Assembly (NCBI GenBank): GCA_951406725.2
Contig: OX597824.1
Coordinates: 61,938,001-62,002,000 of the forward strand
Length of the DNA: 64,000 nt
DNA from: Octopus vulgaris
Lineage: Eukaryota
Direction of reading: 5' to 3'
Positions 45,065-50,098 of the stretch are shown piece after piece; positions within the stretch are counted from its first letter, which is position 1, and each line of letters begins with the position of its first letter. The position numbers and the translations under genes were made by a program. The notes under the pieces were generated by a model. The model saw only the letters and a list, made by a program, of their open reading frames with translations. It was not told the origin of the DNA and made no database searches.

Positions 45065-45620
45065 AATGCCCTGATGCAGTACCAGGCAGTAGCTCTCATG
45101 CTTTGGATCTTAACTGATTGGAAGTGTTATCATGTACATTGTTTTGTCTTGGTATAAAAGATGGGCTACAGCAAATATTCTGCTGAATAGCACAGATTTG
45201 CTTGTCAGTTGTTTGACCGTAACCAGTTGAGCATGTTCATTAGTAGCTGACGATATGTGCATCTCTGATCATGAGCAGAAGTAGTGGGGGAGCATCATAG
45301 CCGTGTATTGAAATGAATTCTTACAGGTTTGGATAATTCACCTTTAGAACATGTGTGGTTCGTTCAACACGCTTAAGAAATCCATATTCAGGGACCTTTT
45401 GAGCGGAATGTTTTACTCGACCAGAAGAAAATTCTAACTCGGCCCCACCTGCATGGTCATGTGCTGTTTAACTTCTTATGGGATCAGCATGTCTCGCACA
45501 TATGATTGTGATGCATGTGCCTAGTATACTCTTATCAGACGGGTAGTCATGATGTGTATGCTGGGCTTCATATATTTTATCCTAGTGTCACTTTGATGGC
45601 ATGCACTGTTCTCTCACTCA
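45065..45620 (+). mobile_element. ~550-bp non-coding TAA-associated element, copy A
   Basis: Reverse complement of 49548-50098 over its whole length; (TAA)n on both sides. Confidence 0.85.
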
Positions 45621-45695
45621 ATAATAATAATAATAATAATGATAATAATAATAATAATAATAATAATAATAATAATAATAATAATAATAATAATA

Positions 45696-48551
45696 AAAAA
45701 ATACAATATGAAAACTATACTTGATATTGATGCCACCATAGAAACCATCAAACAAAAGGTATCTGCCAAAGCTGCCCGCATAGCGAGGTATGAAAAGCGT
45801 GTTAGATTTTTCAAGGACAACAACATGTTCAAAAATAACACCAAGAATTTTTACAGGAAGATAGGAAAAACAGCGTTTACTGCAGGGTCTGTACCATCAA
45901 AAGAAGAAGTGCAGAGATTTTGGAATAAAATCTGGGCAGAAGAAAAAACACACAACGAAAAGGCCCCCTGGATTGACAGAATATCTACAGAACTGGACCC
46001 CTTAGAAGAGCAAAAGTGGGAGGGTGTCAAGGTAGAAGATACAAGATCTGCTCTCAGGAGGTCAAGCAAATGGAAGTCTCCAGGAAAGGATAAAATTCCT
46101 AACTTCTGGCTGAATGCCTTCCCAGAGAGCCATGAACTGCTAACAGAACTGTACAATGATGTTTTGCAACACCCTAGTAGGATGCCTCCTTGGCTAGTTA
46201 ATGGGTTAACATTCCTGCTTCCAAAAAGTGAAGAAACAAATGAACCAAAAAACTATAGACCCATAACCTGCTTAACAACTATGTACAAAACACTAACATC
46301 TGTCCTGACGGAATATACCTATAGTTTTTTAACAGACAGCAGCATATTCCCTAATGAACAGAAAGGATGTAAACGTGGATCCTACGGCTGTAAAGACCAA
46401 CTACTCATCAATAAGATGATCTTAGAAGATTGTCACAAACGACACAAAAACTTATCAATAGCCTGGATAGACTATAAAAAGGCTTTTGATAGCCTACCAC
46501 ATAGCTGGATTAGGAAATGCCTTGAAATGTATAAGATAGCACCAACTCTGCGAAACTTCTTGACTGTAAGTATGAGATCATGGAGAACCACACTAACTCT
46601 GAACAGTGACAGTGAATCCCTAAATGCTGGTGATGTAAACATTTCGTGTGGCATTTTCCAGGGTGACTCACTGTCACCACTCCTCTTTTGTTTATCCTTA
46701 ATACCTCTCTCAAAGCTGCTCAATGACGCGCAGTACGGGTATAAAATGTTTGATAAAAATATAAATCATCTCGTTTACATGGATGATTTAAAGCTTTTTG
46801 CAAAAAATGATCAACAACTCAAGGGCTTACTAGCGATAGTCAAACAATTCAGTGACGACATCAGAATGCAATTCGGCCTCGATAAATGTGCAAAGGCTAC
46901 CTTTATCAAAGGAAAAATGACAGAAACATCTAACGTTAACCTTGACCAACAGAATGTCATAAAAGAACTAGACCCAGCGGAGAGCTACAAGTACCTAGGG
47001 GTAATTGAAGGGGACGGAATAAGGCATTCAGAGATGAAGGAAAGGATCAGGAGAGAATGCTATCGAAGAGTGAGAGCAATACTCAAGACAGAGCTGAATG
47101 CAAGAAACAGGATCGAAGCAATCAATGCATTAGCTATACCAGTCGTGACTTACAGTTTCAATATTGTTAACTGGTCAATTACTGAAATATGTCAGCTCGA
47201 CAGAAAAATAAGGAAACTGTTGACAATGCATAGAATGCACCACCCTAAGGCAGATACAGAACGACTCTATCTGCCAAGAAAAGAGGGAGGCCGTGGTCTT
47301 TTGCAACTGGCAATAACAATGAAGATTGCTACAATTGGCCTAGACACCTACCTGAATAACTCTGAGGACTGGATGCTAAAACTTGTCTCAAAACATGAAA
47401 ACAAGAAAGCATCATACTCAGTCACAAAACAGGCAAAGGAATATCTAAGTGAATTCCGAATACAACCAATTTCGGAATTAGAGATAGATATACAAGAAAC
47501 AAGCACAGAAAAAGCTAGGCGCATGAAAACCCGTGCCAAAACTGCGGCCTTAGATATTCTGAATAATAAATGGCAAGAAAAACCTCTCTATGGCAAATAC
47601 CCAAAGAGAGCGAATAATGCAGATATCGACAAAGCCCTGACCCATCAATGGCTAATGGCCTCTGGCTTAAAATCTGAAACAGAGGGGTTTATCATAGCAG
47701 CTCAAGATCAATGCCTACCAACAAGAAACTACCAGGCCAACATATTAAAGATCAGAAGCAGTCCAACGTGTCGTGTATGCAAGCAACAAAATGAAACCAT
47801 TGACCATGTGGTCTCCAAGTGCAGTTTTCTAGCGCCTACAGAGTATCTCAACAGGCACGATAGAGCTGCACAATATATTCACTGGGTAATCTGTAGAAAC
47901 CTGGATTTGCCCCATGAAAAAAACTGGTGGGAACACAAACCACCCCCAGTGCTTGAAAATGACCACATCTCACTCCTCTGGAACTTCACCATTCAAACTG
48001 ACAGGAAGATAGATGCAAATAGGCCAGACATCATATTGAAATACTTCAAACAAAGAACATGCCTCCTCATTGATATGACTGTCCCAATCAATATAAACGT
48101 ATCTGTCAAGACCTACCAAAAACTGAGCAAATATAAAGATCTTGAAATAGAAATCAGCAAAATCTGGAAGCTGAAGACTAAAACAATACCTGTTGTCATA
48201 GGTGCCCTGGGAATGATAGCAAAAGGGGCTGATAGCTACCTAACTCAGATACCAGGAAACCCAAAAATGGCAGAAGTTCAAAAGATAGTGCTCATGGGAA
48301 CTGCACATATCCTACGCAAAATACTCTCTAAGTAATCTCAAGGTTTAAAACAAACATAATTTTCGGTTTAAAAAAAAAAAAAAAAAACCTTTTTTTTTTT
48401 TTAGACATTCATTAGTACAACATCCCCACCCCCAAATATATGACACACTAGGCATAACAACAACATGAACTTCCAACCCTGTTGTCTCTTGAGGTCTCTG
48501 GGTGAGACTTGGAGCCAACTTGTACAAATATAAAGCAAAAGTCAAACATAG
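45696..48551 (+). mobile_element. 5'-truncated, young R4/Dong-clade retrotransposon inserted in (TAA)n
   Basis: Uninterrupted ORF plus ~215-bp 3' UTR, flanked by TAA arrays on both sides. Confidence 0.93.
45708..48335 (+). CDS. Reverse transcriptase + CCHC zinc knuckle + restriction-like endonuclease (R4/Dong clade), ~875 aa from the first ATG, N-terminus missing
   Basis: YRPITCL, WIDYKKAFDSLPH, GIFQGDSLSPLLF, YMDD, YKYLG, CRVC..H..C, RHD, NRPD..D..K..KY. The poly-Ile start in the track is translated TAA repeat. Confidence 0.93.
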   Translation: MKTILDIDATIETIKQKVSAKAARIARYEKRVRFFKDNNMFKNNTKNFYRKIGKTAFTAGSVPSKEEVQRFWNKIWAEEKTHNEKAPWIDRISTELDPLEEQKWEGVKVEDTRSALRRSSKWKSPGKDKIPNFWLNAFPESHELLTELYNDVLQHPSRMPPWLVNGLTFLLPKSEETNEPKNYRPITCLTTMYKTLTSVLTEYTYSFLTDSSIFPNEQKGCKRGSYGCKDQLLINKMILEDCHKRHKNLSIAWIDYKKAFDSLPHSWIRKCLEMYKIAPTLRNFLTVSMRSWRTTLTLNSDSESLNAGDVNISCGIFQGDSLSPLLFCLSLIPLSKLLNDAQYGYKMFDKNINHLVYMDDLKLFAKNDQQLKGLLAIVKQFSDDIRMQFGLDKCAKATFIKGKMTETSNVNLDQQNVIKELDPAESYKYLGVIEGDGIRHSEMKERIRRECYRRVRAILKTELNARNRIEAINALAIPVVTYSFNIVNWSITEICQLDRKIRKLLTMHRMHHPKADTERLYLPRKEGGRGLLQLAITMKIATIGLDTYLNNSEDWMLKLVSKHENKKASYSVTKQAKEYLSEFRIQPISELEIDIQETSTEKARRMKTRAKTAALDILNNKWQEKPLYGKYPKRANNADIDKALTHQWLMASGLKSETEGFIIAAQDQCLPTRNYQANILKIRSSPTCRVCKQQNETIDHVVSKCSFLAPTEYLNRHDRAAQYIHWVICRNLDLPHEKNWWEHKPPPVLENDHISLLWNFTIQTDRKIDANRPDIILKYFKQRTCLLIDMTVPININVSVKTYQKLSKYKDLEIEISKIWKLKTKTIPVVIGALGMIAKGADSYLTQIPGNPKMAEVQKIVLMGTAHILRKILSK

Positions 48552-48659
48552 AATAAAATAATAATAATAATAATAATAATAATAATAATAATAATAATAA
48601 TAATAATAATAATAATAATAATAATAATAATAATAATAATGATAATAATAGTAATAATA

Positions 48660-48892: not shown

Positions 48893-49010
48893 AATAATAA
48901 TAATAATAAAAATAATAATAATAATAATAATAATAATAATAATAATAATAATAATAATAATAATAATAAGAAGAAGAAGAAGAAGAAGAAGAAGAAGAAG
49001 AAGAAGAAGA

Positions 49011-49205
49011 TTGTTAGGTGGTATGATTTCTTGTTTGTATTTGCCAAATTCCTTAAATAGTGAGAACAATTTTTTAAAATTTTAATCGTGTTTTGCTGCT
49101 ATTTGTATCAATCTTCCTTGCTTCTGAAGTAGGTATTTTTGCAGTTCCATGGTGGTTATTTTATAATAGTTTTCCAGCTTTATAAGGTATCTACTACCTT
49201 CTATT
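49011..49205 (-). pseudogene. Short internal Dong fragment in the opposite orientation
   Basis: GSRYLIKLENYYKITTMELQKYL...AAKH aligns with GGRGLLQL...KIATIGLDTYL...VSKH of the main ORF. Confidence 0.75.
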
Positions 49206-49547
49206 ATTATTGTTATTATTGTTATTATTTATTATTATTATTATTATTATTATTATTATTATTATTTTGATTATTATTATTATTATTATTATTATTATTA
49301 TTATTATTATTATTATTATTATTATTATTGTTATTATTATTATTATTATTATTATTATTATTATTATTATTATTATTATTATTATTATTATCATTATTAT
49401 TATTATTATTATTATTTTGATTATTATTATTATTATTATTATTATTTTGATTACTATTATTATTATTATTATTATTATTATTATTATTATTATTATTATT
49501 ATTATTATTATTATTATTATTATTATTATTATTATTATTATTATTAT
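49206..49547. repeat. (TTA)n microsatellite, ~340 bp
   Basis: Direct reading. Confidence 0.95.
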
Positions 49548-50098
49548 TGAGTGAGCGAGCAGAGCATGCCATCAAAGTGACACTGGGGTAAAATATACGA
49601 AGCCCAGTATACCCATCATGACTACCCGTCTGATAAGGGTACACCAGGCACATGCATCACAACCATATGTGTGCGCCATGGTGATCTCATATCAAGATAA
49701 ACAGCACATGACCTTGCAGGTGGAGCCCAGTTAGAATTTTCTTCAGATCGAGTAACCCATCCCGCTCAAATGATCCCTGAATAAGGGTTGTTTAAGGACG
49801 TTGAACGAAACACCCATGTTTCCAGAGGTGAATTATTCAAACCCCAAAGAATCCCTCTCAACACATGGCTATGATGCTCCCCCACTACTTCTGCTCGTGA
49901 TCAGAGATGCACATATCGTCAGCCACTAAGGGACATGCTCATTTGGTTATGGTCAAACAACTGACAAGCAAATCTGTGGTATTGAGCAGAATATTTGCTG
50001 TAGCCCATCTTTTATACCAAGACAAAACAATGTACATGATAACACTTCCAATCAGTTAAGATCAGAAGCCATGAGAGCCACTGCCTGGTACTGCATCA
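49548..50098 (-). mobile_element. ~550-bp non-coding TAA-associated element, copy B
   Basis: Inverted homologue of 45065-45620; TTA repeats on both sides. Confidence 0.85.

Follow-up and report, generated by a model that had tools for sequence, protein, structure and literature searches.

The element and its setting in TAA arrays

A 64,000 nt stretch of the Octopus vulgaris genome (contig OX597824.1, positions 61,938,001 to 62,002,000; referred to here as the window, with positions counted from its first letter) contains a non-coding element of about 550 nt, present as two full copies in opposite orientation and one 3′ fragment, all of them within arrays of TAA repeats that also carry pieces of Dong retrotransposons. 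Pairwise alignment and profile searching place copy A (555 nt, full length) at 45065–45619 on the plus strand and copy B (550 nt) at 49549–50098 on the minus strand, and the two are 88.5% identical across 556 alignment columns, differing by 34 transitions and 28 transversions. An nhmmer profile built from both matches only A, B and a segment at 225–367 on the minus strand (E 5.5e-28) in the window, the remaining three rows of the scan all having E≥2.6. The 3′ terminus is identical in all three copies (...CTCACTC, followed by (AAT)n), and the 5′ ends of the full copies are similar, with copy A starting at AATGCCCTGATG and copy B starting at TGATG, 5–7 nt shorter. The original prediction, made from the letters of this stretch, had described two opposite full copies with a common 3′ end and 5′ ends agreeing to within a few nucleotides, and all of this is confirmed. 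It had also placed a 3′ fragment at 225–360; this is a real 3′ piece, fragment C, comprising the last 142 nt of the element (226–367, minus strand), and it reaches further than proposed and is joined directly, with no TAA between, to a decayed Dong open reading frame (ORF), with a 4 nt overlap (TATG) at 364–367.

All of the copies are in TAA-type arrays. Copy A is preceded by an (AGT)n(AAT)n array (44851–45064, plus strand) and followed by an (AAT)n array (45620–45695, plus strand) into which a Dong element has inserted; copy B has a short (AAT)n array upstream (50099–50126, minus strand) and a longer one after it (49202–49548, minus strand), and fragment C has an (AAT)n tail (136–225, minus strand). 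The repeats are therefore found upstream of both full copies as well as behind them, in the polarity of Dong tails, as had been predicted, and nowhere in the window does a full copy have the TAA-poor flanks that would speak against that prediction. Positions within 10 nt of a TAA-type array of at least five units make up 1.6% of the window, and 15 of the 16 TAA runs of at least five units belong to Dong or to the element, so this placement is not due to chance. We note that (AGT)n forms the upstream array edge of both copy A (44851–44884) and one of the Dong pieces, Dong C (2128–2201); TAG repeats may also be acceptable as a target, or TAA arrays may turn into TAG arrays over time.

Dong pieces flank every copy of the element in the window. 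A protein profile of 1207 columns, built from 58 full-length relatives (1150–1270 aa) picked from 120 listed, maps five of them, which we designate A to E. Dong A (45696–48553, plus strand) has an unbroken 879-codon frame with reverse transcriptase (RT; Pfam RVT_1) and restriction-like endonuclease (RLE) regions, and a 218 nt 3′ untranslated region (UTR) unrelated to the element. This neighbor had been regarded as intact, but its ORF (45696–48335) matches the 1207-column profile only from column 330 onward and opens within the TAA tail of copy A, and Dong A is thus a 5′-truncated insertion. Dong B (43662–44848, minus strand) is the 3′ third, now decayed, of an element from another Dong family, and has a TAA tail and a 78 nt 3′ UTR, also unrelated to the element; at its 5′ junction it meets an array that runs the other way and faces the array upstream of copy A head to head, which points to a later deletion or inversion. 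Dong D (48661–48894, plus strand) lies within TAA arrays and is a short ORF piece (columns 782–849) that runs directly into the final 39 nt of a 3′ UTR of the Dong A type, with 39 of 39 positions identical. It is the second chimera of ORF and tail, and suggests that about 40 nt of this UTR can end an insertion. Dong E (49011–49201, minus strand; columns 861–918) starts in the array behind copy B and lacks its 3′ end, which is lost at an (AAG)14 run where plus- and minus-strand nests meet (within 48968–49201). Altogether, 43662–50126 is a nest of seven insertions, laid out as described here, whose order is one that we infer.

Dong C (368–2127, minus strand), to which fragment C is fused at its RLE-coding part, is decayed and internally deleted. 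Columns 179–643 correspond to 1981–656 and columns 1020–1118 to 635–360, with about 1.1 kb missing between them, and (AGT)n lies upstream. It is 26–35% identical to Dong A, and it represents the candidate partner lineage for the element. Because (AGT)n precedes Dong C and (AAT)n follows the fragment, the simplest reading is that this is a single insertion whose 3′ end is the tail of the element, and the last ~140 nt of the element may be the 3′ end of the Dong C lineage, judging from this one fused locus. The only coding sequence fused to the element tail is Dong.

Searches for coding capacity, small-RNA heads and ribozymes

A coding origin for the element was considered and rejected, as six-frame translations read by eye (longest stop-free stretch ~60 codons), the profile of 58 Dong proteins and a tblastn search with the 120 Dong relatives (best E only 0.006) were all empty. 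The single ORF with RT and RLE domains that marks an autonomous Dong or R4 element is therefore absent. ARAGORN predicts no tRNA in the element, and three Rfam scans gave only weak matches, none near its gathering score. No A/B box pair near the 5′ end is common to both copies, with a single loose A–B pair in B only, and there is a T4 run near nt 72; a tRNA, 5S or 7SL head with A and B boxes, typical of short interspersed elements (SINEs) transcribed by RNA polymerase III (Pol III), is not seen. The lack of an ORF, of obvious tRNA A/B boxes and of similarity to the adjacent Dong 3′ UTR had all been predicted, and is upheld by these searches and by the shuffle comparisons given below. Having neither ORF nor small-RNA head, the element resembles EhSINE1 of Entamoeba histolytica (see below). 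The inverted repeats in the element are all internal, and it lacks the terminal inverted repeats of DNA transposons and of MITEs (miniature inverted-repeat transposable elements). These include a 20 nt imperfect inverted repeat with arms 63 nt apart in both copies (45178–45280 and 49889–49991) and a 17 nt inverted repeat spanning 190 nt in B only. A sigma-70 promoter scan gave chance-level scores, from a bacterial model that is not relevant to an animal. A pattern scan of public genome contigs for DNA of the element returned no matches.

The shared 5′ end had suggested either a promoter within the element or a self-cleaving 5′ structure, with an analogy to the short internally deleted elements (SIDEs) of R2, which retain the R2 5′ ribozyme (PMC3414825). 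Dong and R4 of Bombyx mori also self-cleave at their 5′ junctions (PMC3774820). A strict descriptor of the hepatitis delta virus (HDV)-like ribozyme found no cores in A or B on either strand and none elsewhere in the window, and the L3 motif itself is absent from both copies; the same descriptor recovered five distinct sense-strand sites in the R4-like loci L011, L014, L020 and L022 (399 kb scanned). The HDV-like matches obtained with relaxed settings fall at the 3′ end and are not the same in A and B, and 13–35% of shuffles also give such matches. Hammerhead motifs were not found on either strand with a simple CUGANGA...GAAA descriptor used without a positive control, nor in the Rfam scans, and the hammerhead core of retrozymes and of non-autonomous Penelope-like elements is thus missing. 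The element may have a ribozyme of unusual form. However, the predicted self-cleaving structure was not recovered, and the R2 SIDE analogy fails in its defining part; because of this we do not classify the element as an R2 SIDE, in spite of the shared target.

The R4-like loci include tandem elements with HDV-like cores in contigs filed under a Rubritalea metagenome-assembled genome (L014 at 1327, 2781 and 12088; L022 at 2934; L020 at 7751), where most cores are 330–410 nt behind the end of the previous ORF. One unit in L014 (~1300–2750) combines a ribozyme core with no more of the ORF than its RLE end, and may be a true SIDE-like derivative. Most of the bacterial genome records L001–L024 carry Dong/R4-like sequence, which is likely to be eukaryotic contamination. 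In L013, an R4-type element is followed by sequence resembling large-subunit rDNA, judging by eye.

Database copies and the modules of the element

Further copies were sought by proxy, through proteins mispredicted from them, using as the query one antisense frame of copy B with X at stops. This matches 37 protein clusters at 36–86% identity, and a profile search adds six to give 43 proteins, all of which carry antisense translations of the element. At least nine of them are named as Octopus bimaculoides (8 of 15 in one listing and 1 of 3 in another). Judged from these sequences, the database peptides show a real repeat family. None of the 43 scores against an antisense Dong profile (best independent E-value 0.039, 2.9 bits).

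The ends of these copies are similar to those in the window. Eleven of the proteins extend at least as far as nt 500; four of these begin within the element and the other seven cross its 3′ end, six of them with a run of I, L and Y at the boundary (background 0.21). We take such runs to be a TAA-type flank because (TTA)n encodes I, L or Y. Eleven proteins come within 32 nt of the 5′ end, a tally that leaves out P0129, which is in a different frame and ends at nt 43. Three of these continue into I/L/Y runs, two into a second 5′ unit, two stop within two codons, two leave at a donor-like GT at nt 12, and two that are old and diverged run into unrelated sequence. Another, P0158, departs from the element at nt 128 and goes on in a V/L/F run, which is what a 5′-truncated insertion would give. 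Randomly placed 5′ ends would have counted against the original prediction; the database copies mostly keep the 5′ end, and they have the same 3′ end. In the window, and judging by the peptides in the database copies too, the element is inserted at the TAA target of Dong. Breaks at nt 374–380 match a splice-donor-like site and are uninformative on the element ends. Several proteins (P0136, P0142, P0151, P0164 and others) begin with an antisense peptide of the element and exit at this site (nt 380); they are probably annotation artefacts or cases of exonisation.

The 5′ part of the element has a modular organization. The head (~nt 1–100; 45065–45170 on the plus strand in A, 49999–50098 in B) lies in the segment best conserved between A and B, the first ~140 nt, with a minimum of 2 and a maximum of 23 differences per 100 columns along the alignment (permutation p 0.007 and 0.011). 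Two O. bimaculoides copies appear, from their peptides, to have a tandem array of a 138 nt 5′ unit (45065–45202, plus strand, in A), and the junctions in P0125 (two) and P0159 (one) are explained residue by residue by a tandem of nt 1–138. Because the first base of this unit is also that of copy A, it gives independent support for the 5′ end. The tandem units are carried by UniRef entries A0A0L8FNA5 and A0A0L8H6S8. In three other database copies (P0137, P0147 and P0148) the head is replaced, and all three leave the element at nt 101 for one common, different sequence (pairwise p 0.0015–0.0024), indicating a sister family in which a different head precedes this body; UniRef A0A0L8HVF0 is an example of the alternative head. 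When further copies of this kind were sought, nothing beyond the three query proteins was recovered (3 of 75 candidates). A TATA-like motif, TATAAAAG, is present in both A (45153–45160, plus strand) and B, with a chance of 0.024 in shuffles of the first 100 nt; it was noticed after the fact, and hints weakly at the predicted promoter as a candidate part of it.

Near the 3′ end there is a predicted stem-loop with a 13 bp lower stem, a 7 bp upper stem and a 5 nt loop (45519–45566, plus strand, in A; 49602–49649, minus strand, in B), a candidate RT signal. The 13 bp stem forms 13, 13 and 12 of its pairs on the sense strand in B, C and A, respectively, and only 10, 9 and 10 on the antisense strand. 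The 3′ stem that had been proposed therefore stands as a pairing, with mixed folding scores (see below). The loop of copies A and B is GGGUA, and that of a 7 bp hairpin in Dong A is UGGGU; the idea that all Dong elements have one 3′ hairpin loop in common was considered and rejected, as no shared motif of this kind was seen by eye in the UTRs of the fetched loci. The opposite orientation of the element is disfavored by the G–U pairing, by the end that fragments keep, and by the sense of Dong C.

The window also contains other repeats. One is a diverged repeat of ~1.2 kb with inverted copies at 65% identity (34923–36102, 53495–54722 and 25665–26010), and another is a young short-repeat family, 89–97% identical, in a palindromic, MITE-like arrangement (8233–8605, 41918–42957 and 52040–52268).

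Origin and mobilization of the element

We conclude, with reasonable though not high confidence, that this modular non-coding repeat, with a head of ~100 nt, a body and a predicted 3′ stem-loop, is probably a non-autonomous retroposon for which the RT and endonuclease of a TAA-targeting Dong element of the R4 clade act in trans. Dong inserts in TAA repeats (PMC3812793), and Dong-R4 elements cover 92.7 Mb of the O. vulgaris genome in 51 families, five of them recently active (PMC13282606). Of the original proposal, the discrete non-coding family, the Dong target and polarity and the kept ends are observed, and movement in trans is its most likely explanation; the partner family and the promoter are likewise putative.

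Several observations weigh against this interpretation. Similarity of the element to the Dong A and Dong B 3′ UTRs is no better than to shuffles, and 30 fetched public loci, most of them R4/Dong-like, contain no copy of the element or similarity to it. Folding z-scores range widely, being −3.2 for the whole of copy B and −0.9 for A, and −2.5, −1.7 and −0.65 for the last 126 nt, and the single-side changes in the stem are all transitions, which easily keep pairs; the 3′ structure is accordingly plausible and not proven. The flanks of the database copies are read from peptides and not DNA, in a sample that favors stop-free frames, and two old copies have no obvious TAA run on the 5′ side and one has none on the 3′ side. 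The sequence upstream of the break in P0148 looked plausible by eye as an antisense Dong C-terminus, and this was rejected when tblastn, the antisense profile and a position-limited matrix (score 5.0, with a null mean of 6.8 and controls of 22–66) all failed. The weakest link is the Dong 3′ end, which comes from one locus where a deletion across two neighboring insertions would give the same junction. A template switch would also look the same, and the stop codon density of Dong C (2.4–3.4 per 100 codons) dates it too roughly to separate one insertion from two.

Some of these points would fit a non-autonomous element moved by another type of long interspersed element (LINE), such as L2/CR1, RTE or a microsatellite-targeting Tx1, with Dong only inserted beside it and the junction at 367 created by a chance deletion. 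The lack of similarity to the Dong UTRs is expected on this explanation, and the positions of Dong A and Dong E, within the tails of A and B, are those expected of later insertions. Moreover, CR1, RTE and L1-Tx1 families have been recently active in O. vulgaris (PMC13282606, Table 1), and the Tx1-type elements Kibi and Koshi target microsatellites (PMC3812793). Nonetheless, we consider it unlikely, since TAA is also on the 5′ side, in Dong polarity, in both window copies and in three database copies, the sole coding sequence fused to the tail is Dong, and Dong elements are the only TAA-targeting elements named in the portion of PMC3812793 available to us.

The junction at Dong C raises the further question of whether the element is mostly or wholly a long 3′ UTR of an autonomous family of that lineage, the full copies being truncations at a preferred site, an outcome that the original prediction had recognized as contrary to its own. 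Fragment C does end a Dong element, and the three database copies that keep the body and share other sequence upstream of nt 101 (pairwise p ~0.002) behave as a parent UTR would. However, the measured Dong 3′ UTRs are short (218 and 78 nt, and ~110–200 nt by eye in L003, L004, L009, L013 and L018), and none of the 11 copies reaching the 5′ end continues into a Dong ORF or, the tandem unit apart, into sequence shared with another copy. In addition, the start of the tandem unit coincides with the 5′ end of copy A, and the sequence upstream in P0148 does not score as Dong. A UTR origin may apply to the last 142 nt, which are fused to Dong C, and is quite unlikely for the whole element.

Solo long terminal repeats (LTRs) of an LTR retrotransposon can be of this length, with TG...CA ends and a TATA box. 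A solo LTR inserted in TAA repeats would fit the length, the possible TG...CA ends, the TATA-like motif and the tandem duplication of the 5′ segment, but is very improbable because the ends are not exact on both sides (the 5′ end differs by 5–7 nt between A and B and varies among the database copies, and only the 3′ end is exact), it is the 3′ end with its TAA tail that partial copies retain, the final A can just as well be counted to the array, and the fusion partner is a non-LTR element.

Target-primed reverse transcription is established for RLE elements, and a Dong-driven cycle for the octopus element could proceed as follows. An RNA with a fixed 5′ end would be made, most likely by RNA polymerase II (Pol II) from a promoter in the conserved head; Pol II is suggested because neither a standard ribozyme nor an A/B box pair common to both copies was found, and the T4 run near nt 72 would stop Pol III. 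A Dong protein would bind the last ~140 nt with its stem-loop, probably common to the 3′ end of the Dong C lineage if the one fused locus is representative. The endonuclease would nick (TAA)n and the RNA would be reverse transcribed there, and insertion of this type leaves TAA on either side of a copy whose 3′ end is exact and whose 5′ end is somewhat ragged or truncated, an arrangement that is observed here. Each new TAA tail would provide a target for the next insertion, building up nests such as the seven insertions at 43662–50126, and template jumps at the 5′ end could account for the tandem 138 nt units and head swaps seen in the peptides.

EhLINE1, the partner of EhSINE1, is placed in the R4 clade. 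The octopus element is closest in build to EhSINE1, more so than to R2 SIDEs (PMC2996970, PMC2657916, PMC3118788). EhSINE1 is 500–600 bp long with no ORF, no identified small-RNA precursor, a 3′ end of ~70 bp in common with its LINE, and variable-number internal repeats (PMC2996970), and EhLINE1 of E. histolytica has a restriction-like endonuclease (PMC3118788). The likeness is in size, the lack of an ORF and small-RNA head, and the variable repeats, and is one of build. EhSINE1 belongs to a protist and lacks targeted insertion, whereas the octopus element is from an animal and occurs only in TAA arrays, the tail that it may share measures up to 142 nt, and the repeat that varies in number is formed by its 5′-terminal 138 nt. 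The R2 SIDEs and R2/R1 hybrid SIDEs of Drosophila are comparable in that they lack coding sequence and ride on a site-specific LINE, whose target they adopt; they have a LINE-type 3′ end, for which the octopus tail is a candidate counterpart, and template jumps occur in vivo (PMC3414825); they differ in having an HDV-like ribozyme from the R2 5′ end and in needing co-transcription with rDNA, whereas no HDV-like core was found here. Dong of B. mori has the same TAA target and polarity (PMC3812793) and differs in its self-cleaving 5′ ribozyme (PMC3774820), the octopus element having neither an ORF nor a ribozyme of standard form.

Bipartite non-autonomous LINEs (RTE, Ingi/RIME and Vingi, and the CR1-derived Persaeus) are similarly short and ORF-less, with modular heads and LINE tails (PMC5786205, PMC6740152). 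Their heads come from the LINE 5′ end, whereas such an origin is only putative for the octopus head, which has no match in the LINE sequence compared (the 5′ region of Dong C, which matches no part of the element, and the 30 fetched loci). The clades with such derivatives listed in the part of PMC5786205 available are RTE, Ingi, Vingi and R2, and R4/Dong is not among them. The tRNA-CORE and tRNA-Deu SINEs of octopus are also short, abundant and non-autonomous in the same genomes (PMC8967140), and the element differs from them in lacking a tRNA-like head and a shared A/B pair and in its early T4 run. Exchange of heads and tails is known among SINEs (PMC7245038). Our literature search found no description of a Dong-dependent passenger, and the octopus papers, in the text available, treat Dong-R4 only as a class (PMC13282606, PMC8967140, PMC9115989). 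Two short motifs of the element are absent from the searched supplements of PMC9115989 (seven of eight files readable), and the family may well be present without a name of its own in de novo repeat libraries, Repbase, Dfam or paper supplements.

The class of mechanism is already known. We raise more tentatively, as a possibility that we would not yet favor, that this is the first non-autonomous partner of an animal Dong/R4 element, in which an RNA without a ribozyme, equipped with a Pol II promoter inside a 5′ module that can be exchanged and expanded in tandem and with a 142 nt Dong-derived 3′ signal, would be enough for site-specific writing into TAA microsatellites across octopus genomes. 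The element helps to explain the long TAA arrays in octopus DNA, and it matters for annotation, since the named O. bimaculoides proteins noted above are partly translations of it. Passengers of restriction-like-endonuclease retrotransposons are rarely described, those of R2 and Entamoeba being the ones that we found. If the octopus element is a passenger of Dong, it would reveal what an R4-clade protein requires of an RNA that it copies in trans and by what means such an RNA acquires a fixed 5′ end when it has no ribozyme, and it would provide a short natural template for TAA-directed insertion and a natural cargo RNA for the Dong family.

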